This document shows positions 1 to 60,903 of a stretch of 64,000 nucleotides of DNA, piece after piece. The stretch is from NCBI GenBank assembly GCA_964484505.1, contig CAZAFB010000003.1, forward strand, positions 37,044-101,043, in the 5' to 3' direction. The translations under genes and the position numbers were made by a program. The notes beneath the pieces are model-generated. The model was given only the letters and a program-made list of their open reading frames with translations. It ran no database searches and was not told the origin of the DNA. This DNA comes from an uncultured Bdellovibrionales bacterium. GTDB taxonomy: Bacteria; Patescibacteriota; Minisyncoccia; Moranbacterales; GWC2-37-73. Each line of letters begins with the position of its first letter. Position 1 is the first letter of the stretch.

Positions 1-843
1 TCTACCGAAGCTCAACAACAAAATGTAGAAACTACTCAAGAGATTTCGCACGAGCCGACTATCTTTGCGGAGCCGATTTTTCACGTGGGAAGCTTCACTA
101 TTACCAATTCTTTGATTATGAGCTGGGTTACTGTCGCTATTTTGGCGACTTTTTTTGTGCTTGTTGGAAAGAATCTCAAGAAGGTTCCGGGAAAGTTGCA
201 AACCGTTTTTGAAATCATTTTGGAACAAGCGCTGAATATGGCTGACACGGTCACGGGAGAAAGAAAAAAAACCTTGCGTTTTCTGCCGATTGCCCTGACC
301 CTTTTCTTGTTCATCTTGGTCAATAATTGGCTGGGACTTTTGCCGGGAGTCGGCACTATCGGTTTCAACGAAGTTGAGGAAGGACATCATGTTTTCGTGC
401 CGCTTCTGCGCGGCGGAACGGCCGATCTTAACACGACTTTGGCGTTTGCACTTTTCACGGTTATTGCGTCGCATATTTTCGGAGTGATTACAATCGGAGT
501 TTGGCATCATCTGAACAAATTCATCAATATTAAAGCGATTGCGGAGATACCAAAGAAAGTTAAAAAGGATCCGACGATTGTGATGGTGAATCCTATCAAA
601 GTGTTTGTTGGCTTGATTGAGGTGGTGAGCGAGATTGCAAAAGTCGCATCGTTGAGCCTTCGACTTTTTGGAAATATTTTTGCCGGGGAAGTTTTGCTTG
701 CCTCGATGATGGCTATTTTTGCATACCTGCTGCCACTGCCGTTCATGTTTTTGGAAATCATCGTGGGAATCGTGCAGGCATTGGTATTTGCGATTTTGAC
801 ACTGGCGTTTTTGAGCATAGCAACGACGGCGGAAGAACATTAA
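1..843 (+). CDS. atpB: ATP synthase F0 subunit a, 5' end probably outside the window. The reading frame is open from position 1.
   Basis: Translation carries the subunit-a hallmark LSLRLFGNIFAGE and multiple TM helices. It is the first gene of the atp operon. Confidence 0.9.
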   Translation, partial: STEAQQQNVETTQEISHEPTIFAEPIFHVGSFTITNSLIMSWVTVAILATFFVLVGKNLKKVPGKLQTVFEIILEQALNMADTVTGERKKTLRFLPIALTLFLFILVNNWLGLLPGVGTIGFNEVEEGHHVFVPLLRGGTADLNTTLAFALFTVIASHIFGVITIGVWHHLNKFINIKAIAEIPKKVKKDPTIVMVNPIKVFVGLIEVVSEIAKVASLSLRLFGNIFAGEVLLASMMAIFAYLLPLPFMFLEIIVGIVQALVFAILTLAFLSIATTAEEH

Positions 844-940
844 AAGAACCACTGATTAGCACATGAACACACATGATTTCACTGATATAAATACAAATCA
901 TGTGTAATCAGGATAATCAAGTGTTAATCAGTGGTTCTGA
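844..940. repeat. Palindromic element family A, gene-less copy 1. Termini are AGAACCACTGATTAGCACATG and its reverse complement.
   Basis: Left end AGAACCACTGATTAGCACATG and right end TTAATCAGTGGTTCT are an imperfect inverted repeat. The same termini occur at 2421 and 15122/15609. Confidence 0.6.
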
Positions 941-997
941 TAATTAATTTAACGCATACACTATTTCTGCTCCCAAAACGAGAGAAAGCAGGGATAA

Positions 998-1237
<240 letters not shown>

Positions 1238-1378
1238 GTGTTTTCTTACGACTTCTTGTTTATTGCAGGAAGTCGGAATGAGGGCAATTATAAAAATATT
1301 TTGAGAAAAAGAACAATGAACAAAGAACAGTGAACAGAGATATTGTTCATTGATCACTGTTCATTGATCACTGATTTT

Positions 1379-1867
1379 ATGGAAGAATTAATAAAAACAT
1401 TTCACATCGATTGGAAACTGATCATTGCGCAATTGGTTAATTTCGCCATTGTGCTTTTCGTGCTGTATAAATTCGCCTATGGTCCGATGATGAAATTGAT
1501 GGACGAGCGTACGAAAAAGATCGACAAGGGACTCAAAGATGCTGAAAACTCACACAAAAAACTTCAGGAAATCGCCGAAAAGGAAAAGGCCGTATTGGTT
1601 GAAGCGAGAAAGCAAGCGCAGGAAATAGTTGCCAAGGCCGAGGCTGCCGCATCAAAGACCAAAGATGAAATTATTGCCGAATCAAAACAGCAGGCGCAAA
1701 AGATTTTGGACGACACTGCCAAAAAGATCGAAATGGAAAAGAACCAAATGCTCGCAGAAGTGAAAACGCAAGTCGCGGAATTGGTGGTTGCAGCGACAGG
1801 GAAGGTTATTGATGAGAAGGTGGACGGGGAGAAGGATAGAAAAATAATTGAAGGAGTGTTGGGATAG
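1379..1867 (+). CDS. atpF: ATP synthase F0 subunit b
   Basis: N-terminal TM helix followed by a long charged coiled-coil (AEAAASKTKDEIIAESKQQAQKIL). The ATG at 1379 is preferred over the upstream in-frame start, which lies in a repeat. Confidence 0.8.
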   Translation: MEELIKTFHIDWKLIIAQLVNFAIVLFVLYKFAYGPMMKLMDERTKKIDKGLKDAENSHKKLQEIAEKEKAVLVEARKQAQEIVAKAEAAASKTKDEIIAESKQQAQKILDDTAKKIEMEKNQMLAEVKTQVAELVVAATGKVIDEKVDGEKDRKIIEGVLG

Positions 1868-1892
1868 ACTAGTATAATCGATTATTTTATAA

Positions 1893-2010
1893 TTTCAAAT
1901 TCACCAAATTACCTAATTCACCTAATAAAATTTCAAATGACCAAATATTTAGCATTTATGAATTTGGCATTTTATTAGGTGAATTAGATGAATTAGAAAT
2001 TAGGAATTTG
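1893..2010. repeat. Palindromic element family B, copy 1 (AATTCACCTAAT words followed by ATTAGGTGAATT)
   Basis: Arms of about 45 bp form a long hairpin between atpF and atpH. A near-identical element sits at 7061-7220. Confidence 0.65.
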
Positions 2011-2015
2011 TTACA

Positions 2016-2417
2016 ATGAAAATCACCACCAAACAATACGCGCAAACATTACTTGACCTGACGGAAAATAAATCCGAGCAGGAGGTTTCTGCTATTGTTC
2101 AAAAATTTGCCGCAGTGTTGAAAAATGACGGGCAGCTCAAAAATGCGGGGAAGATTATGGAAAAGTTTTCGCAGTTGTATAATGCAAAGCACGAGATCGT
2201 TGAAGCGGAAGTGATAACAAGATTTGAAATGGGAGATGTCGAATTGAAAAAGATTGAGGATTTTATTGAGGAAAAATATAAGGCTGAAAAAGTTGAAATA
2301 AGAAATGTTGTTGATGAGAAGATTAAGGGAGGGATTGTGATAAAAGTTGGGGATGAAGTGATTGATGGGTCGGTAAGCGCACAGTTAAAAAAATTGAAGA
2401 GGGAGTTGGTAAAATAA
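2016..2417 (+). CDS. atpH: ATP synthase delta (OSCP) subunit, short form
   Basis: Its position between atpF and atpA and an OSCP-like helical N-terminus. 133 aa. Confidence 0.7.
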   Translation: MKITTKQYAQTLLDLTENKSEQEVSAIVQKFAAVLKNDGQLKNAGKIMEKFSQLYNAKHEIVEAEVITRFEMGDVELKKIEDFIEEKYKAEKVEIRNVVDEKIKGGIVIKVGDEVIDGSVSAQLKKLKRELVK

Positions 2418-2420
2418 ATC

Positions 2421-2513
2421 AGAACCACTGATTAGCACATGATTTTTCTGATTACACATGATTGATTTTTATCAGTGAAATCATGTGTGTTCATGTGATA
2501 ATCAGTGGTTTGG
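2421..2513. repeat. Palindromic element family A, gene-less copy 2
   Basis: AGAACCACTGATTAGCACATGA at the left and TAATCAGTGGTTTGG at the right. Internal words are shared with copy 1 (CATGTGTAATCAG, TCACTGATA). Confidence 0.6.
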
Positions 2514-3007
2514 AATGACAGAAAGAGAAGTTCTTTTGAAAAAAATAAACGTCCGCATTCCAGCTTTCCGGAATGGGACGTTTACATAACAGGACGATCT
2601 TGCTATCGCTAGTCTGTCAAAAACCTATACTTTGCGAGAAGACGGAAAGCTGATGCAATGATCAATGTGAGGACAACGGTAGTCACGCATGTTTGAATGT
2701 GGGATCCGGTTGAAAGGTAGATTGATGGTGAAACTGTGGTGCTTATCGCTACTCCTCGTAGCAGGTTCATGGTTTCCTCCCTATGGTGCGTGTATAGTAG
2801 TTGAACATTGTCAACCGTCAACTATACACCCAAATTAACAATTTGTCAACCATCGAATTCTGATTATTGCATTATTGCCTTAAATAAGCCATAATTTAGT
2901 AATGAGGATTTAATTAAAAAACAGAAAGATACAGAATGAAGCAGAAAGACACAGAAATCATAAATTCCGTGTAGCTGTGTTATTCCGTAGTAAATCTGTG
3001 TAATTCC

Positions 3008-4522
3008 GTGAAATATATGAACAAAGACTACATCATTGATCAATTAAAAAAACAGATCGAAGGCTTCAAGACTGAGGCGACAACTGAGCAGGTTGGGAAA
3101 GTTATTGAGGTGGGAGACGGAGTGGCACGCATCTCGGGTCTTAGCAATCTTATGGCCTCAGAGATGGTAGAGTTCCCGAATGGGGAAATCGGCGTGGCGC
3201 TTAATCTTGAAGAAGATCGCGTCGGTGCGATGGTGCTTGGTGATTATCTCGGTATCAAAGAGGGCGATGAAGTGAAAGCGACCGGTAAAATACTTTCCAT
3301 CCCGGTCGGTGAAGGAATGATTGGACGTGTGATTGATCCGCTTGGAGCACCAGTAGATGGCAAGGGTGATATAAAATCAGATGCATATTATCCAGTAGAG
3401 AAGATTGCTCCCGGCGTAATTACTCGTAAGTCGGTGCATCAACCGGTGCAAACCGGTATCAAAGCGATCGATGCCTTGATTCCAATCGGACGTGGACAGC
3501 GTGAATTGATCATCGGCGATCGTCAGACTGGAAAGACTGCTGTGGCGATTGATACCATCATCAACCAGAAAGGGCAGAACATGAAATGTATCTATGTTGC
3601 GATCGGGCAGAAGGAATCGAAAATTGCCAGAATTTTGGGCGAACTTGAAAAGAACGGTGCGATGGAATATACGACAATTGTTGTGGCTGGCGCTTCGGAC
3701 AGTGCGGCTCTTTCCTACATTGCTCCTTATTCAGGTTGTGCACTCGGTGAATATTTTATGGACAAAGGTGAGGACGTGCTTATTGTGTTTGATGATCTTT
3801 CCCGCCATGCATGGGCATATCGTCAAATTTCTTTGATCTTGAAACGCCCACCAGGACGCGAGGCATATCCGGGAGATGTTTTCTATTTGCACTCACGCCT
3901 TTTGGAGCGCTCTGCTAAGCTTAATGAAAATTTCGGCGGCGGTTCGATGACAGCGCTGCCGATCATTGAAACGCAGGCAGGTGACGTATCCGCATATATT
4001 CCGACCAATGTTATTTCCATTACTGACGGACAAATTTTCTTGGAAACGGATTTGTTCTACAAAGGAGTACGTCCGGCATTAAATGTGGGTATTTCCGTTT
4101 CACGTGTGGGAGGAGATGCACAGATCAAAGCGATGAAGAAAGTTGCCGGAAAACTCAAATTGGAACTTGCACAGTTCCGCGAACTCGAAGCGTTTGCGCA
4201 ATTCGGATCCGATCTTGATGAAAAAACTCGCATCCAGATTGAACGCGGACGCCGCACAGTGGAAGTTTTGAAGCAAGGACAATATGAACCGATGGCAGTT
4301 GAACACCAAGTGGCTATTCTCTATGCTCTCATAAACGGCTTCATGGATGATGTGGCAATAGATAAAATTAAGGAATGGGAAAATGACTTCCATAAATATC
4401 TCGACACGCAAGCGAAAGAAGTCTTGTCGCTAATTACCGAAAAGAAAGAATTGAGCGAGGAAGTTGTGGCGGCACTGGAGAAAGCGATTAAGGAGTTTAA
4501 AGAGATATATCAAACGAATTAA
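3008..4522 (+). CDS. atpA: ATP synthase F1 alpha subunit
   Basis: Walker A motif GDRQTGKT in a 504 aa alpha-subunit homolog. Confidence 0.95.
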
Positions 4523-4609
4523 CACGAATTGATGACGAATGAAAACGAATCACGAATTCGTGTTTCGTGGAAATTCGTTCATACATTCGTGAAAATTTGT
4601 CAAAAATAA

Positions 4610-7003
<2,394 letters not shown>

Positions 7004-7060
7004 GTTGGATAAAATAATTAAGCGTATTTATTAAAAACGCTAAATTTATAATCAGTGTAT

Positions 7061-7220
7061 TTTGAATTCAAAATTCACCTAATTGCCTAATTCACCTAAT
7101 AAAATTTCAAATAATCAAATAAGACATATTTTAGATATTTGTGAATTTGGCATTTTATTAGATGAATTAGGTGAATTAGAAATTTGGTGAATTTGTAAAA
7201 ATGAATTTGGAATTATAAAC
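7061..7220. repeat. Palindromic element family B, copy 2
   Basis: AAATTCACCTAATTGCCTAATTCACCTAATAAAATTTCAAAT is followed by ATTTGGCATTTTATTAGATGAATTAGGTGAATT. It lies between atpD and atpC. Confidence 0.65.
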
Positions 7221-7225
7221 TTTAT

Positions 7226-7666
7226 ATGTCCGGACAAAAAATCAAATTCAAAATTGTTACTCCCGAAAAAACCGTCTTTGAGTCCGAAATTGACCAAGCC
7301 ACTTTACCCGTGACCGACGGGGAGGTGACTATTTTGCCGAATCATCGAAGCTATATTGCTTCGCTTAAGGCTGGTGAAATCATGCTTAAAACTGGTGGCA
7401 AAGAGACCTTGATGGCGACATCGGGTGGTTTTGTGGAATTTTCCAGCAATACATTGGTAGTGCTTGCGGATACGGCCGAGGCTGCAGGAGAAATAGATAT
7501 CAAAAGAGCGGAGGAAGCTATCAAACGTGCCGAAGAGCTTAAGAAAGAAAGAGTTACGATGGATGACATGGAATATGCACGCGTGGCGGCAGCGATCGAA
7601 AAAGAAACAGCGCGTATCAAAGTGGCGAGAAAACATAGGACGAAGCATAATATACAAATCGATTAA
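7226..7666 (+). CDS. atpC: ATP synthase F1 epsilon subunit
   Basis: Beta-sandwich N-terminus (KIVTPEKTVFESEIDQATLPVTDGEVTIL) plus a C-terminal helical hairpin. Confidence 0.9.
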   Translation: MSGQKIKFKIVTPEKTVFESEIDQATLPVTDGEVTILPNHRSYIASLKAGEIMLKTGGKETLMATSGGFVEFSSNTLVVLADTAEAAGEIDIKRAEEAIKRAEELKKERVTMDDMEYARVAAAIEKETARIKVARKHRTKHNIQID

Positions 7667-7818
7667 CCCTACAAATCTACAAATCAATTACCCGCATACC
7701 GGCGAGGCAGGCAAATATACAAATGTGCAAATACAGAAACTAGCGTTTTTGATAACGTTTATGATGTGTTTGTAAATTTGTATATTTGTATAAATTTGTA
7801 ATTTGTAGAACTAAAAAT

Positions 7819-8265
7819 ATGAAAATTCCCTTCAAATTTAAAAACATCCACAGTTGTGAAGCGGTAGTGCTCACTTGCATCGACTTCCGCTTTTGGCGGG
7901 AAACGCTGGAATTCATTGAACAAGAATTGAAACTTACGACATTTGATTTCCCTTCTCTTCCAGGTAGTGCAAAAGCTATTAATGAGTGTGTGAAGAATGG
8001 CGATTTGGCTATGTCTTGCATAAGCGTTCCTTGTGACCTGCACCACGCTAAAAAAATTGTGATTGTGAATCATGAGGATTGTGGTGCCTATGGTGGCTCG
8101 AAAAAATTTGAAGGCGACAAGATTGCGGAGCAGGCTTTTCATGAAATGGAATTGCGCAAAGCCAAGGACGCGATTTTGAGCAAATATCCGGAAAAAGAGG
8201 TAGTTTTAGTTTATGTAAAATTGGTTGATGATGGTGAAACTATAGAATTTGTGGGGGTTGACTAG
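7819..8265 (+). CDS. Small beta-class carbonic anhydrase-like protein
   Basis: Motifs C-I-D-F-R and H-E-D-C-G-A-Y-G-G match the beta-CA zinc ligand pattern (CxDxR ... HxxC). It is short, about 149 aa. Confidence 0.5.
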   Translation: MKIPFKFKNIHSCEAVVLTCIDFRFWRETLEFIEQELKLTTFDFPSLPGSAKAINECVKNGDLAMSCISVPCDLHHAKKIVIVNHEDCGAYGGSKKFEGDKIAEQAFHEMELRKAKDAILSKYPEKEVVLVYVKLVDDGETIEFVGVD

Positions 8266-8364
8266 ACATCGATTTCGTGTATAATATTTAGGCTGTTTGC
8301 TTCTAGCATGCAGCCTTTATTGTTTCGAGAGTTCTTTTAACCCCAGCAAAAGGAGGATACAAAG

Positions 8365-8775: not shown

Positions 8776-8912
8776 AAAAATATGCCCGGTAGTGAAAATT
8801 CAAAAATAATCGCAGGAGCACGAAATTTTTGTATTATTGAATAAATTTTTAAATAAAAAATAAACAAATGAAATACTTTTGGGCAAAGCCCATTTGAATT
8901 TCTACTACCGGG
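8776..8912. repeat. Family C element with 20-bp terminal inverted repeats (CCCGGTAGTGAAAATTCAAA ... TTTGAATTTCTACTACCGGG) ending 1 nt before the ATG
   Basis: The two ends are near-perfect reverse complements. The last 41 nt are identical to the copy at 47857-47985. It contains a GGGCAAAGCCC mini-hairpin. Confidence 0.65.
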
Positions 8913-8913
8913 T

Positions 8914-10017
8914 ATGGAAACAACAAAAAAAATTCTTAAGATTGCTTTGATTATCATCATTGCGATTGTTTTGGCGTTCGCATTACTTCTGGCTTTGCGT
9001 GTTGCCAAAAACGAGAAGGGCGGTTCGCAAACGGGATATGATTCCGCTGGAACAATGCCGATGTCGATAGACGCGGGCAGAAGCATGATGGGCATTGAAA
9101 ACGGCGAAGGGATGGCTGATTTCAATATGCCAAACCCTGCATTGCAAGAAAGTGCTGCGATGCCTGCGCAGAAAGGAGAAGTTGTGGCGAGAGATGTGCA
9201 AGTCGCAGAGAAAAAAATCATCAAAGACGGATATATAAATGCCCAAGTGGATAATGCTGACAATGCAGCCAGGGATATTTCCGGAATTGCCAAACGTTTG
9301 GGCGGTGATGTCGAATCGATGAATTTCCGCAAGACCGCACAGAACGTAAAAAGCGGCACGATTGTCGTACGTGTTCCGTTTATCAATTTCGATACGGCTT
9401 TTGAAGAAATCAAGCAAGTTGCAACATTGGTCAGGAGCGAATCGGCTAATGCGCAAGATGTGACCAGTCAAGTTGCCGATTTGGAAGCTCGCCTCAAAAA
9501 CAAGCAGGCTGAAGAAGAATCTTTTCAGCAAATTTTGGATAATACGAACGGCAAGACCGAAGATGTTTTGATGGTAACGCAAGAACTATCTCGCGTACGC
9601 GGGGAAATTGAACAACTTGAAGCGCAGAAGAAATATCTTGCATCGCAAACGGATATGTCCACGATCACGGCAAATATTTCCGAAGATGTGACGGTTGGCA
9701 CCGCGACCTCCTGGAGGCCATGGCAGATTGCCAAGACTGAATTCGCCAGCATGCTTAAAGATTTGCAAAAATTGATTGGAGCATTGATTGTGATTGTTGT
9801 TCGTCTCACTCCGATACTCCTGGTGTTTATTCTGTTCTTCCTGATTGTTTTTTGGGTAGTGAAAGCTATTATTAAATCAATTTTTTGGAAAAAGAAGCAA
9901 AAGGAGATGCAACAAAAAACAGAAGAACCGATAACTCCTGCTGGCCCTGAGTCGATAAAGAAAGCTCCACGCACAAGAACGATAGCTGCAAGACGTATTA
10001 TTTCACGAAAAAAGTAA
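8914..10017 (+). CDS. DUF4349-like membrane protein (N-terminal TM, central domain, C-terminal TM)
   Basis: This architecture and central region are typical of DUF4349 proteins. Confidence 0.6.
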   Translation: METTKKILKIALIIIIAIVLAFALLLALRVAKNEKGGSQTGYDSAGTMPMSIDAGRSMMGIENGEGMADFNMPNPALQESAAMPAQKGEVVARDVQVAEKKIIKDGYINAQVDNADNAARDISGIAKRLGGDVESMNFRKTAQNVKSGTIVVRVPFINFDTAFEEIKQVATLVRSESANAQDVTSQVADLEARLKNKQAEEESFQQILDNTNGKTEDVLMVTQELSRVRGEIEQLEAQKKYLASQTDMSTITANISEDVTVGTATSWRPWQIAKTEFASMLKDLQKLIGALIVIVVRLTPILLVFILFFLIVFWVVKAIIKSIFWKKKQKEMQQKTEEPITPAGPESIKKAPRTRTIAARRIISRKK

Positions 10018-12172: not shown

Positions 12173-12635
12173 AACACTGCTAAGTGAAAAATTGAGGCGT
12201 GGGAGATGTTAACTGACATCGACCGCGCCTTTTATTTTGCAAAGAAATTTCTTGAATTTCTTTGCACGCGGACAGATGCGGACGAGACGCAGAATTACGC
12301 GGAAAAATATCAAAACCGATTCGAATCTACGAATATCCGCAAATAAACTAAAAATGCAAAATACTTCGATACTCGAAAGTATCAAAGTATTTGACCAATT
12401 TATTTTTGAAGAAATTTTTTGATAAAAAAACAAAGCCATATGGCCTTGTCCTTATGTGCCGCGGGAGAGACATCTCACTCGCTCTGACTTTCAGTCTGAG
12501 CTCTTTGAAAACCCACGGTTTTCAAGACTTTCCTTCACGGGAAAACTCAGGTTTTCCCGACCCCTTTCCTGGTTCGAGTCTCCAAAGAAATAAAATTTAA
12601 AAGCCAACTATAAATAGTTGGCTTTTAAATTTCAG

Positions 12636-12719: not shown

Positions 12720-12866
12720 GAGTATTGATATTTAGGCTATTCCAAGCCTTTTTACCTCTATATGATAAACGATTGAAAAGAGATTGTCAATGTGATAATA
12801 TAGATACGCGGTTAAGGTTATGGTAACGAGGCCAGTATCGTAAAAGGGTGATGATAACACGTCAAA

Positions 12867-13271
12867 ATGCAAGAACCAAAACAAACAATTAAAAGTTTTC
12901 GTGATTTGGAAGTTTATAGAAATACATATGATGCTAGTATTGTGGTTATGAAAGAAATAGTGCCGTTGCTTCCGGATTCGGAAAAATATGATCTTAAAGA
13001 TCAATTATCCAGATCAAGCAAAGCTGTTCCGCGGCTCATTGCTGAGGGTTATGCAAAAAGACATCAGAAAGCAGGATTCCAAAAATATCTAGACGATGCC
13101 ATGGGAGAATGCAATGAGACCATAGTTGGACTTGAACAATGTTGTGATATTTATGATATCAATAAAGAAAAATGCCAAAAATTAATTGACACATATGATA
13201 AGTCTGGAAGACAATTATACAGATTGTCAGAAGCATGGAGTCGATTTAAAGACGGAAGACGTAACCATTAA
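12867..13271 (+). CDS. Four-helix-bundle protein (23S rRNA intervening-sequence protein family)
   Basis: FRDLEVYR ... DLKDQLSRSSKAVPRLIAEGYAKRHQKAGFQKYLDDAMGECNETIVGLE matches the IVS four-helix-bundle family. It is flanked by an imperfect inverted repeat, GGTTATGGTAACGAG and ATCGTTACCGTTACCC. Confidence 0.7.
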   Translation: MQEPKQTIKSFRDLEVYRNTYDASIVVMKEIVPLLPDSEKYDLKDQLSRSSKAVPRLIAEGYAKRHQKAGFQKYLDDAMGECNETIVGLEQCCDIYDINKEKCQKLIDTYDKSGRQLYRLSEAWSRFKDGRRNH

Positions 13272-13313
13272 ACGAAACGGGCATCGTTACCGTTACCCTT
13301 TGACGAAGCAAGT

Positions 13314-14084: not shown

Positions 14085-14213
14085 TTTTTTTATAGTACTT
14101 TCTCTACGAAGTGCGAACAGGTACGAATGTACAAATGTGTTTATCGATGTTTCGTAATTTCGTATGGTTCATAATTCATAGAGTGAAAATTTAACTATTC
14201 AAAACTATTTTCT

Positions 14214-15137
14214 ATGGCTGCTCAAAATTTTGGTCTCGGCAGGGGATTATCATCACTTATACCTAACGCAGGCACTGCGCCACAGACAGATGCGCCGGTA
14301 GGAAAACGTCCCGTGATCGGCGAAGATGATTCGATTCGCGGTGACAAATATGTCGTGGAAATCGATATTGACTCAATTGTGCCAAATCCGCAACAGCCGC
14401 GCATCCGTTTTGACGAGGAAAAATTGGCCGACCTGGCTTCATCAATCAAAACACATGGAATCATTCAGCCGTTAATAGTAAGTCGCGATGGCAATCAATA
14501 TGAAATTATTGCCGGTGAGCGTCGTTATCAGGCGAGCAAAATTGCCGGACTGAAGAAATTGCCGGTGATTGTTCGTGAAGCCGGGGAATTAGAGAAGCTT
14601 GAGTTGGCGATAATCGAAAATATTCAACGTCATGACCTTAATGCAATTGAAGAGGCGAAAGCATATCAAAAATTGATAGATGAATACCAAATGAATCAGG
14701 AGGAGGTTGCTTTCAAGATGGGGAAGAGTCGCAGCTTGGTAGCTAATAAAGTGCGTTTGTTGTCGCTGCCTGTGGAAATTCAACGGGCGCTTATTGAAGG
14801 CAGGATTACCGAGGGTCATGCAAAGGCGATTTTGGCAATTTCCAACCCTGAAAAACAACGCGCTCTATATGAACTTATTCTCAGAGATAATTTGACCGTA
14901 CGCCAAACTGAAGACAAGACCAAAGATATTTCGGTCAAACCGCATAAACGTGTCGTCAATGTCGACCCTGCATTAAAAGAAATTGAAGAAACTCTGATTG
15001 GCGCTCTTGGCACGAAAGTTAAAATTTCCAAAGCCGGCAATGGCGGGAAAATCGTGATTGAATATTATTCGCAAGAAGATTTGGATGCGCTACTAAATAA
15101 GATACGAACCACTGAAAATATAAGAACCACTGATTAG
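14214..15137 (+). CDS. parB: Chromosome partitioning protein ParB/Spo0J
   Basis: GLGRGLSSLIP, the ParB box IAGERRYQASKIAG and an HTH. The last codons and the TAG stop lie inside the repeat-family-A terminus. Confidence 0.9.
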   Translation: MAAQNFGLGRGLSSLIPNAGTAPQTDAPVGKRPVIGEDDSIRGDKYVVEIDIDSIVPNPQQPRIRFDEEKLADLASSIKTHGIIQPLIVSRDGNQYEIIAGERRYQASKIAGLKKLPVIVREAGELEKLELAIIENIQRHDLNAIEEAKAYQKLIDEYQMNQEEVAFKMGKSRSLVANKVRLLSLPVEIQRALIEGRITEGHAKAILAISNPEKQRALYELILRDNLTVRQTEDKTKDISVKPHKRVVNVDPALKEIEETLIGALGTKVKISKAGNGGKIVIEYYSQEDLDALLNKIRTTENIRTTD

Positions 15138-15619
15138 CACGTGATTAAAATGATTGCACTGATCATAAATGCAGCATGAAAAAATATGTTGATGACAAAT
15201 ATTATAAATCTGAAGTAACCGGCAGCATAATTAACTGCGCGCAGAGAGTTCATCGCGAGCTAGGCAATGGATTCCAAGAAGTCATTTATCAAAAAGCTTT
15301 AGAAATAGAACTAAAACGTGCTGGCCTAAAGTTTGAACGAGAAAAGGAGATGGCTATTTATTATGAAAACGAACTCATCGGAACCAGGAGAGTTGATTTT
15401 CTTGTTGATAAGGATATTATGGTTGAACTAAAAGCAACTACAAAACTGGAAGACGTCAATGTGGCACAACTCATAAACTATATAGAGGCATATAAGGTAA
15501 AAGTAGGCCTGCTTATAAACTTCGGCTCAAAAAGTTTGGAAGTGAAACGTTATGTAAAATGATCCCTATCACGTGTAATCAGGGAAATCAGTGCTAATCA
15601 GTGGTTCTCTAGTGGTTCT
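15122..15619. mobile_element. Family A element carrying a GxxExxY (PD-(D/E)xK-like) gene between 21-bp terminal inverted repeats
   Basis: Left end AGAACCACTGATTAGCACGTG (15123-15143). Right end CAGTGCTAATCAGTGGTTCTC (15589-15609), plus a partial second copy TAGTGGTTCT. 19 of 21 positions match as a reverse complement. Confidence 0.55.
15176..15562 (+). CDS. GxxExxY family protein (PD-(D/E)xK nuclease-like fold)
   Basis: NGFQEVIYQKALEIELKRAGLKFEREKEMAIYYENELIGTRRVDFLVDKDIMVELKA ... GLLINFG matches the GxxExxY family. Confidence 0.75.
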   Translation: MKKYVDDKYYKSEVTGSIINCAQRVHRELGNGFQEVIYQKALEIELKRAGLKFEREKEMAIYYENELIGTRRVDFLVDKDIMVELKATTKLEDVNVAQLINYIEAYKVKVGLLINFGSKSLEVKRYVK

Positions 15620-17093
15620 TTTTCAGCGCTCTTCTTATGTGGGATTTTGCCACAGAAGTGCGCGCGAACTTAAGCCAGTCGCCATTGGGCGATTTTCTAT
15701 CTTTGGAAGTTATAATCTCGATCACTTGTCCGTTTTTGATGATGTGATCCAATGGTATCATCTTCCCGTCAGCCTTGGCGCCGACCGTGTGGTGTCCGAT
15801 TTCGCTGTGGATGGCATAGGCGAAATCTATAGCGGTGGCTTCCTCCGGAAGATCGATAATATCGCCGCGGGGAGTGAATGCAAAAATGTGATTGCGAAAA
15901 AAATCTATTTTCAAGGTTTCCAAAAATTCTTGATCATCTCGACCTATTTCCGTTTGCCACTCACGCAATTGTTTGACCCAAACCAATTCTTTTTCGGTAA
16001 CAAGCGGCTTTTTGCTCATGAATAAAATATTTTTCCAGCTTTTTTTGGCTTTTTCACTATAAATCCAATGTGCTGCAATACCGAACTCGGCTTCATCATG
16101 CATTTTCTGAGTGCGTATTTGTACTTCCAAAATTCTGCCTTCCGGACCGAAAATAGTGGTGTGAATGGATTGATATCCATTTGGTTTAGGCAGGGATATA
16201 TAGTCCTTTATTCTACCGATCATGGGGCGATATTTTTTGTGAACTATGCCCAACGCCTCATAACAATCAGTAACTTCCGGTACTATTATGCGCACTGCTG
16301 AAAGGTCATAAATTCTGTTTATATCCATGTCGTGCTTCTTGAGTTTTTCAAAGAGACTATAGAGACTTTTGGCTCTCCCGTGAATTTCCAAGACGCTTAT
16401 ACCAGCATTGGCCAATTCTTTGCGAAGCTGTTTGATCGCCTGATTCACATAAACCTCTCGCTCCTTGTAACTTTTTTTAACCAATTCCTCGGCGTAGACA
16501 TAATTTTCATGGTCAAGATATTTAAAAGAAAGGTCTTGCAATTGAGTTTTGATTTCGCCGATTCCCAAACGGTTTGCCAGGGGCACAAAAACTTCCATGG
16601 TCTCGCGGGCGATGCGCTGCTGTTTTTCCGGGGGGTTGTGTTCCAGTGTCCGCATGTTGTGCAGGCGATCCGCCAGTTTTATGATAACGACTCGGATATC
16701 CGCAGCCATGGCCAAAAACATTTTGCGCAGATTTTCCAAAAAATATTCTTCATGGGAACCACGCAATTTCAATTTGCCCAATTTGGTTACGCCGTCAACC
16801 ATGTGAGAGATTTCACTATCGAAATTCCTTTCAATTTCTTCCAGAGTATATGCTGTATCTTCGGGAACATCATGAAGTAATCCAGCAGCTATTGTTTTAG
16901 CTCCCATACCTATTTCAGCCAGAATTTTCGCTGTTGCCAGGGGATGTTGAATATAGTCGTCGCCACTGCGTCTTTTTTGACCGCAGTGCGCTTTTTTGGC
17001 AACCTCAAAAGCCTTGCGGATTAAGGCATCTTTTTGCTTGTCCAAAGGGAATTTAAACGCTTTGATAATATCTTCAATGACTAATTGCTTCAT
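15609..17093 (-). CDS. Bifunctional (p)ppGpp synthetase/hydrolase, RelA/SpoT family, no ACT domain
   Basis: HD domain (HDVPED), synthetase domain and TGS domain. The stop codon lies in the family A repeat. Confidence 0.9.
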   Translation of the reverse strand: MKQLVIEDIIKAFKFPLDKQKDALIRKAFEVAKKAHCGQKRRSGDDYIQHPLATAKILAEIGMGAKTIAAGLLHDVPEDTAYTLEEIERNFDSEISHMVDGVTKLGKLKLRGSHEEYFLENLRKMFLAMAADIRVVIIKLADRLHNMRTLEHNPPEKQQRIARETMEVFVPLANRLGIGEIKTQLQDLSFKYLDHENYVYAEELVKKSYKEREVYVNQAIKQLRKELANAGISVLEIHGRAKSLYSLFEKLKKHDMDINRIYDLSAVRIIVPEVTDCYEALGIVHKKYRPMIGRIKDYISLPKPNGYQSIHTTIFGPEGRILEVQIRTQKMHDEAEFGIAAHWIYSEKAKKSWKNILFMSKKPLVTEKELVWVKQLREWQTEIGRDDQEFLETLKIDFFRNHIFAFTPRGDIIDLPEEATAIDFAYAIHSEIGHHTVGAKADGKMIPLDHIIKNGQVIEIITSKDRKSPNGDWLKFARTSVAKSHIRRALKKNH

Positions 17094-17257
17094 ACAAAAA
17101 TACTGCAATTAAAAGCTGGCTCGTCTTTAGTATAGAGGATAAATCTTCAAATGGCTACCATCGGCAATAAAATTAGGAGTTACGTGTTATAATAAATTTC
17201 AAACAAATATTATTTTTTGCTGAAATTTTAAAAATTAAAACGAGCAGATCCTAAAAA

Positions 17258-17290
17258 TAAAAAACCGACCCGTGAGAGATCGGTAAAAAA
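17258..17290 (-). terminator. Terminator downstream of topA (hairpin ACCGATCTCTCACGGGTCGGT followed by a T-run on the minus strand)
   Basis: On the minus strand the stem precedes TTTTTTATTTTT. On the plus strand it is followed by an A-run, so it could be bidirectional. Confidence 0.5.
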
Positions 17291-19542: not shown

Positions 19543-19672
19543 AATGCTAATTGTTGCTAATGATAAATACGAATGAACGCTAATAATATATGCTAATTAT
19601 TGCAAATAAATAAATGTGAATGAGTTTACTTTTCAGCAGCTTTTGTGTTTATGATTTGCGAAAATTAGCATG

Positions 19673-21935: not shown

Positions 21936-22079
21936 AGTTCTATAAATTACAAATTGTTTACAAATTATTCTATATTAAGTATCCTTTTATATCTTACACC
22001 TTGTGATGTTATATTTACCAGTAAGGCAAGGTCGGTGGCATCTTTTTTGTATATTTGTATTGATTTGTAATTTGTAGGT

Positions 22080-26815: not shown

Positions 26816-26893
26816 AATAGGTTGCGAATCAGTGCGAATGTAATGCATATGCTAATATTTGCGAATCATTCATTCGCATCAATTTGTATCTTT

Positions 26894-27352
26894 ATGACTA
26901 TAAAGAATAAAATCCAAGAAGATCTTAAAGCGGCAATGAAATCGGGCGATAGCTTTCGTCGCGATGTTTTGCGCTTGCTGGATAGTGCTATCAAGAATGT
27001 GGAAATAGAAAAGAAAAAACGCGAAGAAGGATTGAGTGAAGAAGAGGTTATAGAAGTCATTTCCAGGGCGGTAAAACAAAGACAAGACAGCATCAAACAA
27101 TATAATGATGGCGGGCGAGGAGACTTGGCCGAGAAAGAACAAAAAGAACTTGATATAATCATGGAATATATGCCGGAGCAGCTTTCCGAAGATGAAATCG
27201 AAAAGATCGTTGCGGAAACTATTTCCCAAGTGGGAGTTTTGTCGCCTGCTGATATGGGCAAGGTCATGAGTATGGTGATGGCGAAGTTGAAAGGAAAGGC
27301 TGATGGTAACGTTGTGCGCGACATAGTTCAGAAAAAATTGGCGGCAAAATAA
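26894..27352 (+). CDS. GatB/YqeY domain protein
   Basis: IKNKIQEDLKAAMKSGD ... MGKVMSMVMAKLKGKADG. Confidence 0.8.
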   Translation: MTIKNKIQEDLKAAMKSGDSFRRDVLRLLDSAIKNVEIEKKKREEGLSEEEVIEVISRAVKQRQDSIKQYNDGGRGDLAEKEQKELDIIMEYMPEQLSEDEIEKIVAETISQVGVLSPADMGKVMSMVMAKLKGKADGNVVRDIVQKKLAAK

Positions 27353-30957: not shown

Positions 30958-30986
30958 CTTTCAACTTACAATTTACAATAAATGAC

Positions 30987-31010
30987 AAAAGCGGGGCATC
31001 CGCTTTTTTG
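30987..31010 (+). terminator. Rho-independent terminator after ftsZ
   Basis: AAAAGCGGGGCATCCGCTTTTTTG. Confidence 0.75.
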
Positions 31011-31137
31011 TTTGCTGCCTGCAGTGAACCCCTGTGGCTTGCTGTGCATAACTAAGCGCTTCTTTGATGAAATAGTTTGGTATATAATGTATTTGTGGTC
31101 TAAATAAAAATATTTAGAGAAAAATTAAACCAAAAAT

Positions 31138-33126
31138 ATGAAAATCAAAATTGTGTGCTTGGCTTTTGCTTTGGTGTTCTTCGCTACAGCAATAAATGCC
31201 GAGGAAATTTCCGATAGCACAAGCGAAAATGTCAAAGAAGGATATGTCGTGCCGGTAATCGTATCTTCTGCCAGTGCAGAAATGCAGGAAGGGAATATTG
31301 CTAAGATTAATTTTAGTGTCAAAAATAGTGGAAAGGAAGCGCAGCGTTTCAGATACAGCACAAATGTCTTGAATGTTAATGGCGATGGTGTTGAACTTTA
31401 TGATCAAAAAAAGTTTGACGAGTTAGTGTTTCTGTTTCCCGGAGAAAACAAAGATTTACAGTTTGAATATGCTTTTTCAGAAAAAGGAAAGCTTGGTAAT
31501 TCTTTTACAGTGAAGATCATTTTGGAAGACTCAAATGGAAAGATTTTGGATATGTATAATGCTGGTATCATTAATTGGGAACCAAAAGAAAAACAAGTCG
31601 TAACAAATAATTCCAATATTGAAAAGAAAGAATCAAGCCTAATGCAAAAGGCTTCGATTGCATTTATTTTTGTTACAGTATTTCTGATAATGTTAGTTTT
31701 ATTTTTGAGGAAAAAAATGGCAAACAGAGCCGCATTGTTCTTGTTTTTTGTCCTTTGCAGTATGCTTCATTTCCAAAAAGCTCAAGCAGTGACTGTAAGT
31801 AGCGGTAGCGGCAGCGTTACCTTTACCTCGTATACCAGGGCTGATGCTTGTCCCAACCCTGGTCCGTTTGTGTGTGTGGCCTCTGGAGTTACTTATAACA
31901 ACGGTCTTGATTATAACTACAGAACAACATCCACGGCCACCATTCCTGGTTATAAGAGGGGTCGTGCGGCAATATACATAGGAACCGAAGCTTCAATTAT
32001 TGACAGTGCAAATCCGATTAATGGAACATACTCGCCACCTACAAGCACTACGCAATTTATAAACAGTGAACCGCCAATTTCTTATTCGGTCACATTTAAT
32101 GGGCAAACCAAGACGGTATTTACAAATGCTACGGCAAGATTTGAATATTGTGGTTCAGGAGCATCCGGATGCGATAATCCCGTTTATTATAATTATGCTT
32201 CTTTTACTTTACCCGCATCTCCAGGTATATATAATGCAAGTTACACCGCTTCATATAATGGCAGGACCAGCAGCGGCACTTTTCCGATAGCCGTAGTTTC
32301 CGAACTTTCAGGAGCTTGTGATAATGGTCCGAATGGCCAAAATAGTGGGGTTCCAAAGTCTACAGCACCAACGTCCTTTTGCAGTTCTGGTTTTTATAAT
32401 AATGATCTTATTTCCAATGCAACCACTTGGAATTGGAGATGTTATGGAGGACTTTCAGTCAATGGCGCAACTGTTGATGCAAACAACCTAGGCGTTTTTG
32501 CAAACTGTAGCGCGAACAAGATCGTGTATAGTTGTACGGCAGGTGCCAGCACGGCAAATGCTGATCCTTGCACGGGTGATAATACAGGCCTTTCGGCCAA
32601 TACTCCGAACACTCTGGTTTCTGCTTGTGGCGTTCCTAAATGTGAATATACCTGTCGTTCAGGATTCACCCTTTATTCCGGAGCTTGCAGAAATATTTGT
32701 GGAAGTGCTAATGGAGGTACTTATTCAACGGCTCCCGCAACAAATCTTTGCGGAACAGGGAGCTCTATCATCGGTACGGTTACTGATTCTGGAACCAATT
32801 GGACTTGGACGTGTGCTGGAACAAGCGATGGCAGGATGAGAAATTGCAGTGCTATAAAAGGAGCTTGTGTTGTGAGCTATAGTGATTATCAGTGCACATA
32901 TAACGATTCAGTCGATTGTCTTGATGAGGCAAATTGTGAACAAACAAATCACAAAACCGTCAATGCATGTTCTGCCCAAAATAGTTGCACTTCTGGTTAT
33001 GATTTACTTACTCCTGCAGATTGCAACAATAACGGAGTCGCTTGTGCGAACAATGACCAAACATGTCCGGATTGTGCGCCAAGCGATCCCACGGGAGAAA
33101 ATGTTTATCGTGAAGTAGCACCATAG
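31138..33126 (+). CDS. Large Cys-rich surface protein, paralog A. Signal peptide, N-domain, TM helix, RKK, internal signal-peptide-like helix, then a Cys/Thr/Ser/Gly-rich C-domain.
   Basis: N-terminal Sec signal (AINA/EE). Mid-protein ASIAFIFVTVFLIMLVLFLRKK-MANRAALFLFFVLCSMLHFQKAQA. The C-domain carries repeated [ST]APxxxLC...TW[TN]WxC boxes and the conserved tail TCPDC...NVYREVAP. Confidence 0.6.
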   Translation: MKIKIVCLAFALVFFATAINAEEISDSTSENVKEGYVVPVIVSSASAEMQEGNIAKINFSVKNSGKEAQRFRYSTNVLNVNGDGVELYDQKKFDELVFLFPGENKDLQFEYAFSEKGKLGNSFTVKIILEDSNGKILDMYNAGIINWEPKEKQVVTNNSNIEKKESSLMQKASIAFIFVTVFLIMLVLFLRKKMANRAALFLFFVLCSMLHFQKAQAVTVSSGSGSVTFTSYTRADACPNPGPFVCVASGVTYNNGLDYNYRTTSTATIPGYKRGRAAIYIGTEASIIDSANPINGTYSPPTSTTQFINSEPPISYSVTFNGQTKTVFTNATARFEYCGSGASGCDNPVYYNYASFTLPASPGIYNASYTASYNGRTSSGTFPIAVVSELSGACDNGPNGQNSGVPKSTAPTSFCSSGFYNNDLISNATTWNWRCYGGLSVNGATVDANNLGVFANCSANKIVYSCTAGASTANADPCTGDNTGLSANTPNTLVSACGVPKCEYTCRSGFTLYSGACRNICGSANGGTYSTAPATNLCGTGSSIIGTVTDSGTNWTWTCAGTSDGRMRNCSAIKGACVVSYSDYQCTYNDSVDCLDEANCEQTNHKTVNACSAQNSCTSGYDLLTPADCNNNGVACANNDQTCPDCAPSDPTGENVYREVAP

Positions 33127-33156
33127 ATAAAACTGCACATAAAAATAGTCTACACA

Positions 33157-33190
33157 CAAAAGCGGGGTGACCCGCTTTTGTCGTCTTTTG
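33157..33190 (+). terminator. Rho-independent terminator
   Basis: AAAAGCGGGGTGACCCGCTTTTGTCGTCTTTTG. Confidence 0.65.
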
Positions 33191-33308
33191 CATGCAATGA
33201 ACCCTTGCGGTTTGCTGTGGATAACTCGTTAACTTTTTTTTCGCAGCCTTTTGTTGTATAATAAGCCTATAATAATAAAAAAATATTTATAAAAAATAAA
33301 CCAAAATT

Positions 33309-36634: not shown

Positions 36635-36729
36635 AATTAAAGGAAAAACGCAGAAGAAAACAGAAAAACACAGAGACACAGAATTTCAGTGTCATTCTGC
36701 AAGCTTCTGTGTAATTCTGTAATAGCTAT

Positions 36730-36843: not shown

Positions 36844-36951
36844 AAATCGCGAATTGACGCAAATGGAATCGCGAATAATCGCGAATATATCAGCGGTGGT
36901 TATTAGTGAATATTGGAGATAAATTAGTGTAAATTAGTGATTTATAAAATT
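36844..36951 (+). repeat. r-protein leader repeat copy 1 (CGCGAAT and AATTAGTG words)
   Basis: AATCGCGAAT x3, then ATAAATTAGTGTAAATTAGTGATTTATAAAATT immediately before the rpsM ATG. Confidence 0.7.
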
Positions 36952-37338
36952 ATGGTACGTATCGCAGGAATAAATTTGCCGGACGAAAAGCGCATTGACA
37001 TCGCGCTTACCTATATATACGGCATCGGAGACACGACAAGTAATCGCATTTTGGAAGGTTTGGGAATCGACAAGTCTTTGCGCACCAAGGATCTGAGCGC
37101 TGACCAAGCAAACAAGATCCGCGAAGAGGTGGAAAAGAAATATCGCGTGGAAGGAGAACTCAAACATGAGGTAAAGATGAACATCAAACGTCTCAAGGAA
37201 ATTGGTTGCTATCGTGGCTCACGCCATCAGAAAGGTCTTCCGGTAAACGGACAGCGCACCAAAACCAATAGTCGCACCGTTCGCGGTAATGTTCGTCGCA
37301 CGATGGGAAGCGGCCGCAGATCGGAATCTAAGACATAA
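36952..37338 (+). CDS. rpsM: 30S ribosomal protein S13
   Basis: MVRIAGINLP N-terminus. Confidence 0.9.
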   Translation: MVRIAGINLPDEKRIDIALTYIYGIGDTTSNRILEGLGIDKSLRTKDLSADQANKIREEVEKKYRVEGELKHEVKMNIKRLKEIGCYRGSRHQKGLPVNGQRTKTNSRTVRGNVRRTMGSGRRSESKT

Positions 37339-37445
37339 TGATAAAAATCGCGAATCGACTCTAATATAGTCTCGAATAATCGCGAATGTTTTATTAGGGA
37401 TAATTAGTGAATTAATTCGTGTTGATTAGAGATTCATATCATCAT
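37339..37445 (+). repeat. r-protein leader repeat copy 2
   Basis: AAATCGCGAATCGACTCTAATATAGTCTCGAATAATCGCGAATG ... ATAATTAGTGAATTAATTCGTGTTGATTAGAGATTC. Confidence 0.7.
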
Positions 37446-37925: not shown

Positions 37926-38032
37926 AGGATATCAGTCGCGAATCGACACTAATTAGTCTCGAATAATCGCGAATGTGAATTTATTAGAGATAATTAGTGA
38001 TAAATTAGTGTAAATTAGAGATTTATAACATT
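37926..38032 (+). repeat. r-protein leader repeat copy 3
   Basis: GGATATCAGTCGCGAATCGACACTAATTAGTCTCGAATAATCGCGAATG ... GATAAATTAGTGTAAATTAGAGATTTATAACATT, then ATG. Confidence 0.7.
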
Positions 38033-38665: not shown

Positions 38666-38739
38666 ATTTTTACTACAAACTAACTTCATAAGTAAACGTG
38701 TTCTTTGCGCCTGGGCGCGATCAGCATGTTCCAAAGGCT

Positions 38740-39720: not shown

Positions 39721-39835
39721 GGATATAAATCGCGAATCGACGCGGATTTAATCCCGAATTATCGCGAATAGCGATGCGAATTGATTCATTAGAGATTATT
39801 AGCGATAAATTAGTGTTGATTAGGGATTTAATTAT
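39721..39835 (+). repeat. r-protein leader repeat copy 4
   Basis: GGATATAAATCGCGAATCGACGCGGATTTAATCCCGAATTATCGCGAATAGCG ... GATAAATTAGTGTTGATTAGGGATTTAATTAT. Confidence 0.7.
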
Positions 39836-40201: not shown

Positions 40202-40308
40202 GATCGCGAATGATCACGAATAAAATTTCGCGAATTTACACGAATGACTTGCTGAAATTATTCGAGATTATTAATGATAAATTAGTGTAAATTAGCGAAT
40301 AAATTAAT
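40202..40308 (+). repeat. r-protein leader repeat copy 5 (more diverged)
   Basis: GATCGCGAATGATCACGAATAAAATTTCGCGAATTTACACGAATG ... GATAAATTAGTGTAAATTAGCGAATAAATTAAT. Confidence 0.65.
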
Positions 40309-40695: not shown

Positions 40696-40802
40696 GGATA
40701 TGAATCGCTAATCGACACGAATTTTATCTCGAATAATCGCGAATGAAATTCATTAGAGAAAATTAGCGATAAAATTAGCGTAAATTAGAGATTTATAACA
40801 TT
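40696..40802 (+). repeat. r-protein leader repeat copy 6
   Basis: GGATATGAATCGCTAATCGACACGAATTTTATCTCGAATAATCGCGAATG ... GATAAAATTAGCGTAAATTAGAGATTTATAACATT, then ATG. Confidence 0.7.
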
Positions 40803-46440: not shown

Positions 46441-46555
46441 AATGCTCGCAACTTTATTTCCATATATTTCGTGCAACATATTTCTATATGTTTTTCGGGT
46501 GTTGGAAATAAATAGAAATACGAAGAAATAAGTAGAAATTAATTGTCAAAATGCA

Positions 46556-60736: not shown

Positions 60737-60903
60737 GGAATTTTTACAATATGTTATAAAACTAGAAGTTACGCATCTGCATAAATTTCAAGCAAATATA
60801 TATTTTTTGCTTGCCTTTCACGGCCGGCAGTGCGCAAAAATAATATTTGCTGAAATTTTGAAAATTCAAACGTGTAAGTTCTAAAAATATTTTTTACAAA
60901 AAT

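Follow-up and report, generated by a model that had tools for sequence, protein, structure and literature searches.

Why should spacers between housekeeping genes contain a short word repeated several times and then its reverse complement? This question is raised by the window analysed here (the whole stretch of 64,000 nucleotides), which belongs to a genome of Candidatus Moranbacteria (Patescibacteria/CPR). Our analysis indicates that these word hairpins are probably the two inverted arms of small selfish cassettes, kin of the intervening sequences (IVS) of rRNA genes. In this view, the small nuclease gene kept in the loop of some copies has disappeared from most of them.

The window and the sequences compared with it

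The atp operon occupies bases 1-8000 of the window and the series infA-rpmJ-rpsM-rpsK-rpsD-rpoA-rplQ-rplM-rpsI lies at 36.4-41.3 kb; the remaining ORFs are housekeeping genes. The ORFs of the 64 kb include no transposase, integrase, Cas or Nop/Tas gene, and neither rnc nor rRNA is present in the window; the Rfam search matched two tRNAs only. AtpA is 94% identical to that of a MAG contig (L001) and 79-87% identical to those of other Moranbacteria MAGs. A search of a metagenome collection with AtpG yielded no closer relative above 81% identity. Strain-level contigs were collected by exact-protein look-up with the RpsM and AtpE sequences of the window, and the same look-up with RpmJ found no contig. 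Most contigs carrying the exact RpsM or AtpE sequence are shorter than 5 kb; the hairpin elements would explain why assemblies of these genomes break at spacers. The 6-mer hairpin scan has a background of about 1 false positive per 10 kb of coding sequence and, therefore, hairpin densities compared across taxa are only indicative.

Word hairpins in the intergenic spacers

The first-pass annotation had described, for most spacers, a word repeated in tandem and followed by its reverse complement. The pattern is present at all eight places that it gave as examples: 2-5 tandem words with a period of 7-10 nt precede reverse-complement words, the named words occurring three to four times and their reverse complements one to three times. 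These words are GAACA (four times at 1311-1332, then TGTTC twice), ACGAAT (four times at 4524-4552, then ATTCGT three times), ACAAAT then ATTTGT (7671-7794 and again 21949-22070), CAGAA (four times at 2922-2952; three times at 36651-36679, then TTCTG three times), GCGAAT (three times, then ATTCGC, 26824-26872) and GCTAAT (four times, then ATTAGC, 19546-19664).

Excess inverted 6-mer pairs (p<=0.01 relative to 300 dinucleotide shuffles) were detected in 34% of the 44 spacers of at least 60 nt covered by the test; 20% have an excess of direct pairs and 18% of both, compared with 0-2% of length-matched coding controls. Likewise, 12.4% of intergenic 100-nt windows have a folding z-score below -4 versus 1.1% of coding ones (Mann-Whitney p=1.4e-9). 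The spacers thus exceed coding sequence as well as the shuffled controls that had been put forward as a possible refutation. Furthermore, 32 of the 49 arrays detected by Tandem Repeats Finder (TRF) fall within the non-coding 14% of the window (p=2e-16). Both arms consist of 2-5 units of 7-10 nt; other arrays have periods of 14 and 23 nt. Helical phasing of the words was rejected: instead of a constant 10-11 nt, their periods vary between 7 and 11 nt.

The pattern is real, but it concerns about 15-18 of the 44 spacers and not most of them. Many spacers lack it, for instance atpG-atpD (34 nt) and 8266-8364. Those that have it cluster in the atp operon (1-8 kb) and from infA to rpsI (36.6-40.8 kb). 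Hairpins and cassettes of the window are as follows (strand is given where one was assigned; I numbers are inverted repeat calls):

844..944: F1 solo hairpin, atpB to atpE (I5)
1305..1378: GAACA word hairpin (I8/I11; TRF period 7 in both arms)
1873..2020: F2 hairpin, atpF to atpH (I2, 48-nt arms; words AATTCACC/TAAT)
2418..2515: F1 solo hairpin after atpH, inverted relative to 844-944 (I16)
2919..3007: F4 hairpin abutting the atpA start (TRF period 10, 3.9 copies)
4514..4600: ACGAAT/ATTCGT word hairpin, atpA to atpG (I17, TRF)
7041..7224: F2 hairpin, copy 2, atpD to atpC (I4/I22)
7667..7808: F3 TACAAAT/ATTTGTA hairpin, atpC to the next gene (I10/I12, TRF period 8)
12816..13297, plus strand: four-helix-bundle / 23S_rRNA_IVP cassette (ORF 12867-13271; PF05635, TIGR02436, PDB 2GSC)
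14100..14190: word hairpin ACGAA.../...TTCGT, parA/parB spacer (fold)
15110..15625, plus strand: F1 element with ORF (left arm 15119-15173, ORF 15176-15562, right arm 15568-15608)
19543..19672: GCTAAT/ATTAGC word hairpin between minus-strand topA and dprA (I6, TRF)
21936..22079: F3 TACAAAT hairpin, copy 2, between minus-strand genes (fold and shuffle test)
26816..26896: GCGAAT word hairpin upstream of a yqeY-like gene (word count)
36635..36729: F4 hairpin filling the spacer from the infA stop to the rpmJ ATG, polymorphic between strains
36844..36951, plus strand: F5 copy 1, rpmJ to rpsM (TCGCGAAT words then ATTAGNGA words)
37339..37445, plus strand: F5 copy 2, rpsM to rpsK
37926..38032, plus strand: F5 copy 3, rpsK to rpsD (I3)
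39721..39835, plus strand: F5 copy 4, rpoA to rplQ
40202..40308, plus strand: F5 copy 5, rplQ to rplM (I23)
40696..40802, plus strand: F5 copy 6, rplM to rpsI (I1, 55-nt arms)
46441..46555: word hairpin ATTTC.../GAAAT..., frr / M50 peptidase spacer (fold, shuffle test, TRF)
60748..60891: long imperfect hairpin of a family common to 17167-17259, arms not clearly periodic

Families therefore recur within the window (two solo copies of F1, two copies each of F2, F3 and F4, and six of F5) and the word sets are not specific to each spacer, contrary to what had been claimed. The F2 copies (1873-2020 and 7047-7205) are 82% identical and the F3 copies reach 94% identity between 7777-7808 and 22046-22077. 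The F4 words at 2919-3007 are CAGAA, then CTGTG/CCGTG. The GAACA hairpin ends 0-3 nt upstream of the atpF ATG, and its family also precedes atpD in L006.

Other structured or repeated sequences were observed besides the word hairpins. A leader hairpin without word structure occurs twice (8776-8920 and 47848-47993), with 23-nt arms ATGCCCGGTAGTGAAAATTCAAA / TTTGAATTTCTACTACCGGGTAT about 89 nt apart, and ends exactly at the ATG of a DUF4349 gene and of greA; it may be a shared regulatory leader. Just 3' of atpE, a GC-rich hairpin (1250-1275) is kept with compensatory changes in L001-L009, and upstream of the same gene (945-1015) relatives retain a TTAATTAATTT motif together with a structured leader. 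These two features, separate from the word hairpins, probably act as regulatory signals of the atp operon. The atpH-atpA spacer holds an antisense mini-cassette (2516-2900) that includes a terminator-like hairpin at 2540-2586, a minus-strand ORF for a hydrophobic product of 70 aa (2609-2821; no Pfam or NCBIfam match) and, on the same strand, a near-consensus promoter (TTGACA-17-TATAGT, 2849-2821); a homologue lies in the atpG-atpD spacer of L001 and the cassette is missing in strain L172. At 55470-55640, a tRNA-like sequence has an acceptor stem, a D arm and a T arm (the latter matched by cmscan), with about 65-70 nt interrupting the expected anticodon-loop position. It was called by neither ARAGORN nor the Rfam tRNA model, and may be an intron- or insertion-bearing tRNA gene. 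Moreover, a 62-nt inverted repeat (85%) links the spacer beside tRNA-Leu (12509-12570) to 41313-41373, inside ORF 41263-41532. A 190-nt repeat (70%; 30985-31170 and 33156-33341) precedes two large ORFs of 662 and 925 aa that have no Pfam match.

F1 hairpins and the GxxExxY gene

In one family, F1, homology was established between copies with and without an ORF. F1, whose termini are AACCACTGAT...ATCAGTGGTT, forms a hairpin of about 100 nt twice in the window; the copy at 844-944 has termini AGAACCACTGATTAGCAC...GTTAATCAGTGGTTCT and the words CACTGAT/ACATGA. Positions 847-951 and 2510-2410 are 88.6% identical over 105 nt in inverted orientation, which argues against shared low complexity alone. 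The third copy (15119-15608) is split, a GxxExxY ORF standing in the place of the loop, and its flanks are identical to the solo copies at 88 of 118 (844-944) and 82 of 116 (2418-2515) positions.

This ORF (15176-15562) encodes 128 aa matching PF13366 PDDEXK_3 (E=2e-38) and TIGR04256 (E=1e-39), and both the GxxExxY and the D...ExK motifs are readable in its product. The AlphaFold model (pLDDT 86) has a PD-(D/E)XK fold; a fold search with it returned generic PD-(D/E)XK relatives alone (Cas4, lambda exonuclease, splicing endonucleases; TM 0.4-0.5), and a PDB sequence search with the protein gave no match. From its sequence, the product is a predicted GxxExxY PD-(D/E)XK nuclease and not a known transposase.

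ORF and arms are found together in unrelated gene neighbourhoods. At least 8000 homologues of the protein are among the matches listed, and those 73-79% identical to it lie in six different neighbourhoods of other Patescibacteria genomes: between parB and spoT, between DUF2304 and GT2, before PrgI/TraC, between Lcl_C and DUF3800, between Laminin_G giant genes, and between an RND adaptor and an ABC transporter gene. In all six, the terminus AACCACTGAT (plus strand, left) and its reverse complement (minus strand, right) bracket the ORF, exact over 10-12 nt, and each homologue is co-directional with its upstream gene. Furthermore, solo F1 hairpins occupy other spacers in L002, L003, L004, L012 and L198. 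The three junctions examined at F1 copies revealed no target-site duplication or clean empty-site junction.

The F1 5' terminus AACCACTGATTAGCACATGA (15126-15137) closes all three frames (TGA, TAG, TGA). In several genomes (L181, L182 and L184 were examined), the stop codon of the upstream host gene falls within this terminus, so that the element provides the stop of the host gene.

Inverted arms around other small ORFs

A survey of about 1.6 Mb of fetched loci, with 505 control genes, extends this association: inverted arms flank all 15 testable GxxExxY, four-helix-bundle ('23S rRNA IVS protein') and GIY-YIG ORFs. The inverted-repeat score of their flanks has a median of 40, versus 20 for the controls (95th percentile 36; p=3.6e-10). 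Small cassette ORFs are co-directional with the host operon in 16 of 16 cases. For instance, the four-helix-bundle gene of the window (12867-13271; PF05635, E=3e-19; TIGR02436; match to PDB 2GSC) lies between GGTAACG and CGTTACC word arms, with a flank score of 32, and ORFs of this type also stand between inverted arms in L182, L026, L025, L083 and L002. Many cassette arms consist of tandem words, such as GAGAGTTA repeated six times and then reverse-complement words in L182, or AACAACT then AGTTGTA words in L026.

Protein subfamily tracks arm family. Arms made of CAGAA then CTGTG, the F4 type of the window, surround a GxxExxY gene in L002 and L004; the protein from L002 is 33% identical to that of the window, whereas the homologues of 73-79% identity have F1 arms. 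ORF-bearing forms were found for F1 and F4-type arms only and not for five families of the window (F2, F3, F5, GAACA and ACGAAT), which by analogy would belong to the same class of cassettes. Some atp spacers of L002-L005 carry GxxExxY, GIY-YIG or four-helix-bundle ORFs that are missing at the same spacers of the window.

A further cassette family, absent from the window, was observed at L003 3744-4026, L004 8795-9092 and L001 8700-8775. Its small GIY-YIG ORFs are bracketed by inverted arms TGTCATCCTGA...GTTTCAGGATC / GATTCTGAAAC...TCAGAATGACA, and ORF-less hairpins of the same family lie in atp spacers of L001, L004 and L009.

Turnover between relatives and between strains

Families are common to distant genomes at non-orthologous sites. 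The F3 TACAAAT family, with ends CCCACAAAT...ATTTGTGGG, also occurs in L002 and in L038, whose AtpA is 66% identical to that of the window; more generally, the same termini and words are found at non-orthologous sites in genomes with AtpA 66-87% identical. Conversely, the orthologous atp spacers of L001-L009 carry word hairpins of other families or none, those of L008 being short and devoid of hairpins. Beyond these relatives, the atp spacers of an Anaerolineales MAG of the Chloroflexi (L057, 1743-8650) carry tandem-word hairpins (GGAGTAAGGAGTAGG... then TTCTTATTTCTAAA...; GAGGCTAAGGCTGAGG... then CCTCAGCC...) and, therefore, the spacer grammar is not restricted to Patescibacteria.

Whole-spacer swaps and changes in word number occur between strain-level contigs. 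Coding sites diverge from the window by 0.1% in L163 and by 0.2-0.6% in L161, L164 and L168. In these contigs, 65 of the 95 columns of the infA-rpmJ spacer differ and extra SNPs adjoin it. The swap covers everything between the stop codon and the next start codon: F4 is present in the window and in L188, an F5-like hairpin in nine contigs. The contig of the window matches JGI 3300022666, and the alternative allele is found in 3300022663. The F5 hairpins of the contigs with 0.1-0.6% divergence are identical to those of the window. L163 has five coding differences from the window, three of them no more than 160 nt away from the swapped spacer; such flanking SNPs would fit co-conversion. Whole-spacer swaps could also result from ordinary homologous recombination, with no action of the element. 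Other contigs show smaller or similar changes: in L165, the F5 copy between rpmJ and rpsM is replaced by another hairpin; in L171 and L175, the GAACA hairpin has one extra word and a 5-nt indel; in L174, a different family occupies the site of the atpE-atpF hairpin; and in L172, the F1 copy at 2418-2515 is reduced to its left arm.

F5 and the possible function of the hairpins

Among the hairpins, those of F5 argue most strongly for a function. The six copies stand ahead of consecutive ribosomal-protein genes (36844-40802), occupy the entire stop-to-start gap and share a conserved 3' tail, GATTTATAACATT-ATG. One pair of F5 covaries, with five pair types, a result matched by only 2 of 500 shuffles; G-U pairs occur on the sense strand as well. 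The covariation appears in a shifted register only (word 3 with right word 4, word 4 with right word 3) and a fully nested palindromic register, which shows none, was rejected. F5 thus looks partly functional.

Could the hairpins in general be selected intercistronic RNA modules, serving as RNase III sites, mRNA stabilisers or translational-coupling devices, in which the region following the stop codon pairs with the one ahead of the next start codon, itself devoid of a Shine-Dalgarno sequence? Their concentration in operons for stoichiometric complexes (atp, ribosomal proteins) speaks for it, as do the many 3' arms that end 0-13 nt from an ATG without obvious Shine-Dalgarno sequence and the properties of F5, namely its filling of stop-to-start gaps, its covarying pair and its G-U pairs. 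Moreover, A is more frequent in the 5' arm than in its 3' counterpart for 53 of 80 hairpins (53:27, p=0.005), the 5' arms being A-rich and the 3' arms T-rich, which hints at some strand-related constraint. We nevertheless regard this explanation as unlikely. The sense strand has the better folding energy in 17 spacers and the antisense strand in 11 (p=0.07), several word hairpins folding better in antisense; F1 is present in both orientations within one operon; many spacers, including the 34-nt atpG-atpD spacer of the window and the short orthologous spacers of relatives such as L008, have no hairpin; the nested F5 register lacks covariation; and the same arms also flank small selfish ORFs. 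For these reasons, a structural requirement on every intergenic RNA, as suggested by the first-pass annotation, is not supported. Functional RNAs would be compatible with the cassette explanation because elements could be co-opted.

Several related candidates were tried and rejected. A G-U signature of RNA-level selection was discarded, as there is no consistent sense-strand advantage in folding energy. A rule of purine-rich 5' arms is not significant (39 vs 30), the bias of A over T alone surviving. Promoters showed no enrichment.

Local mutation, guide RNAs and terminators

Repeats of this kind might also be a local mutational by-product, created without mobility by slipped-strand duplication and intrastrand template switching (quasi-palindrome correction). 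Indels of words and partial words between strains (window vs L171/L175) and periods of 7-10 nt that agree between arms are consistent with this, and the heptamer copy number of the Coxiella IVS varies too (PMC4990558). As a full account it appears improbable, since it leaves aside the termini and words shared at non-orthologous sites by genomes with 66-87% AtpA identity, the exact 10-12-nt termini around homologous ORFs in six neighbourhoods, the replacement of whole hairpins between contigs differing at 0.1-0.6% of coding sites and the 88.6% identity of F1 copies over 105 nt. Slippage probably shapes the arms without explaining their origin or spread. Hence, of the active repeat-generating process that had been proposed, the activity stands (fast turnover, differences between orthologous spacers, gain and loss of words between strains), but mobile hairpin families and internal slippage take the place of a local generator making new word sets.

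That the hairpins are guide-RNA arrays (TIGR-Tas or CRISPR-like) or intrinsic terminators is extremely improbable: TIGR arrays do occur in Patescibacteria, with palindromic stems possible, and hairpins 3' of genes could end transcription, but a TIGR-Tas array has units of about 36 nt with two variable spacers each, beside a Nop-domain Tas gene (PMC12045711), whereas the elements of the window have units of 7-10 nt (other arrays 14 and 23 nt), are scattered singly between housekeeping genes whose ORFs include no Nop-domain/Tas or cas gene, and have no Rfam matches, and terminator-like sites are as numerous as expected from shuffles, the word hairpins having no GC-rich stem followed by a T run and not being among the sense-strand sites.

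A proposed model of selfish cassettes

The reading that we favour remains that of selfish cassettes. A full cassette would comprise a word array, a small ORF and an array of the reverse-complement word, the ORF encoding a GxxExxY PD-(D/E)XK nuclease, a four-helix-bundle '23S rRNA IVS protein', a GIY-YIG protein or a DUF559 protein. Such a cassette would sit between genes of a host operon, in the same direction, and so would presumably be transcribed by read-through. The common form would lack the ORF, its arms joined by a short loop into an imperfect hairpin of 70-130 nt. Cassettes may spread by nuclease-promoted, homing-like recombination with occasional ectopic insertion; either ORF and arms move jointly, or the ORF may target the loops of pre-existing dispersed hairpins. 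Strains would swap whole spacers by homologous recombination between the conserved genes on either side, and the number of words would rise and fall by replication slippage. A need for the stem may keep the arms complementary. It could be a signal for RNase III-type excision, rendering the insertion harmless to the operon transcript in the manner of rRNA intervening sequences, or a DNA structure or binding array seen by the cassette protein.

A bolder and more doubtful proposal goes further. Each family would be a tandem word array, in DNA or RNA, matched to a word-recognising cassette protein; the whole would form an undescribed superfamily of mobile elements whose 'transposase' would be a PD-(D/E)XK nuclease of about 130 aa and whose best-known special case would be the rRNA intervening sequences. 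Some Patescibacteria families, particularly F5, may by co-option now serve ribosomal-protein and atp cistrons as leaders devoid of a Shine-Dalgarno sequence or as processing punctuation.

Small proteins of the GxxExxY and four-helix-bundle 'IVS' types are very abundant in bacteria, and we know of no demonstrated function for them. The cassette model would give them a role that can be tested, that of cargo or agent of a selfish element. In the reduced genomes of Patescibacteria, spacers of essential operons contain hairpins of the same families that lack an ORF, and the concept of the rRNA 'intervening sequence' would be extended to mRNA operons. In addition, the stems are candidate RNase III sites that could shape operon expression.

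Comparison with known systems

We found no account of such CPR spacer hairpins in the searchable literature, a search outside which most subscription journals lie and which leaves their novelty unproven. Several known systems share part of their features. Some transposon ends carry subterminal arrays (AAACGG hexamers of Ac/Ds, 12-mers of En/Spm, end sites of Tn7 and Mu) whose words are proven transposase-binding sites. Similarly, the elements described here have a short family-specific word repeated at one end and inverted at the other; a word matched to the element's own protein would complete the likeness, the binding of cassette proteins being hypothetical here.

T4-like phages harbour free-standing homing endonuclease genes that spread by 'intronless homing': small GIY-YIG or other nuclease genes lie between conserved genes, co-oriented with them, with polymorphism of presence, absence and replacement among relatives. 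To our knowledge, these phage genes have no long word-repeat inverted arms and leave no solo hairpins. The cassettes resemble them in having a nuclease ORF between conserved genes, co-oriented with its neighbours and polymorphic among close relatives, and the extra SNPs beside the swapped spacer would fit co-conversion as well.

The palindromes of organelle genomes (Volvox, PMC2670323; Fusarium, PMC7218506; Lobosphaera, PMC4524435) are likewise selfish-looking, intergenic, optional between close relatives and tied to indels, but they belong to other hosts and other sequence families and have no small nuclease ORFs.

MITEs and REP/REPIN sequences (PMC3184786, PMC3116915) are also short, ORF-less intergenic hairpins, present in several copies per genome and derived from a longer gene-carrying element. 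F1 has the form of a MITE, being a short ORF-less element with terminal inverted repeats and several copies, solo in five other genomes; its parent shares the termini, although the ORF encodes a predicted PD-(D/E)XK nuclease and not a known transposase. Unlike MITEs and REPs, no recognised transposase or RAYT was found in the window and no target-site duplication at the F1 copies; moreover, the arms are made of tandem words of 7-10 nt and not of a unique terminal inverted repeat, the copies being 73-89% identical. A REP/REPIN-RAYT identity was rejected, since the stems are AT-rich and 70-130 nt long, without GTAG/CGTC-tagged GC-rich REP stems, and no Y1 transposase is found among the ORFs of the 64 kb.

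The closest known system is the IVS of bacterial 23S rRNA (Coxiella, Leptospira, Salmonella; PMC4990558). The IVS of Coxiella combines terminal inverted repeats with 3-4 tandem GACAGAT heptamers, whose number varies between strains, and with a loop that contains a four-helix-bundle ORF; RNase III excises it (PMC4990558). The elements of the window and its relatives share with IVS the terminal inverted repeats forming a long stem, an optional S23p / 23S_rRNA_IVP four-helix-bundle ORF in the loop (12867-13271 in the window), ORF-less forms of about 100 nt, tandem words with strain-variable copy number (heptamers in the 5' arm of the IVS) and a sporadic distribution that looks like horizontal transfer. 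Furthermore, rRNA genes of CPR bacteria contain non-intron insertions encoding GIY-YIG or 23S_rRNA_IVP proteins, in addition to short ORF-less insertions (PMC11270868), and the same two ORF families are found here. In contrast to IVS, the elements lie between protein-coding genes (atp, ribosomal proteins, parAB) and not inside an rRNA helix, many families coexist in one genome, and GxxExxY nuclease genes are a main cargo. Since they are not inside rRNA genes, they are best called IVS-like or MITE-like cassettes of operon spacers.
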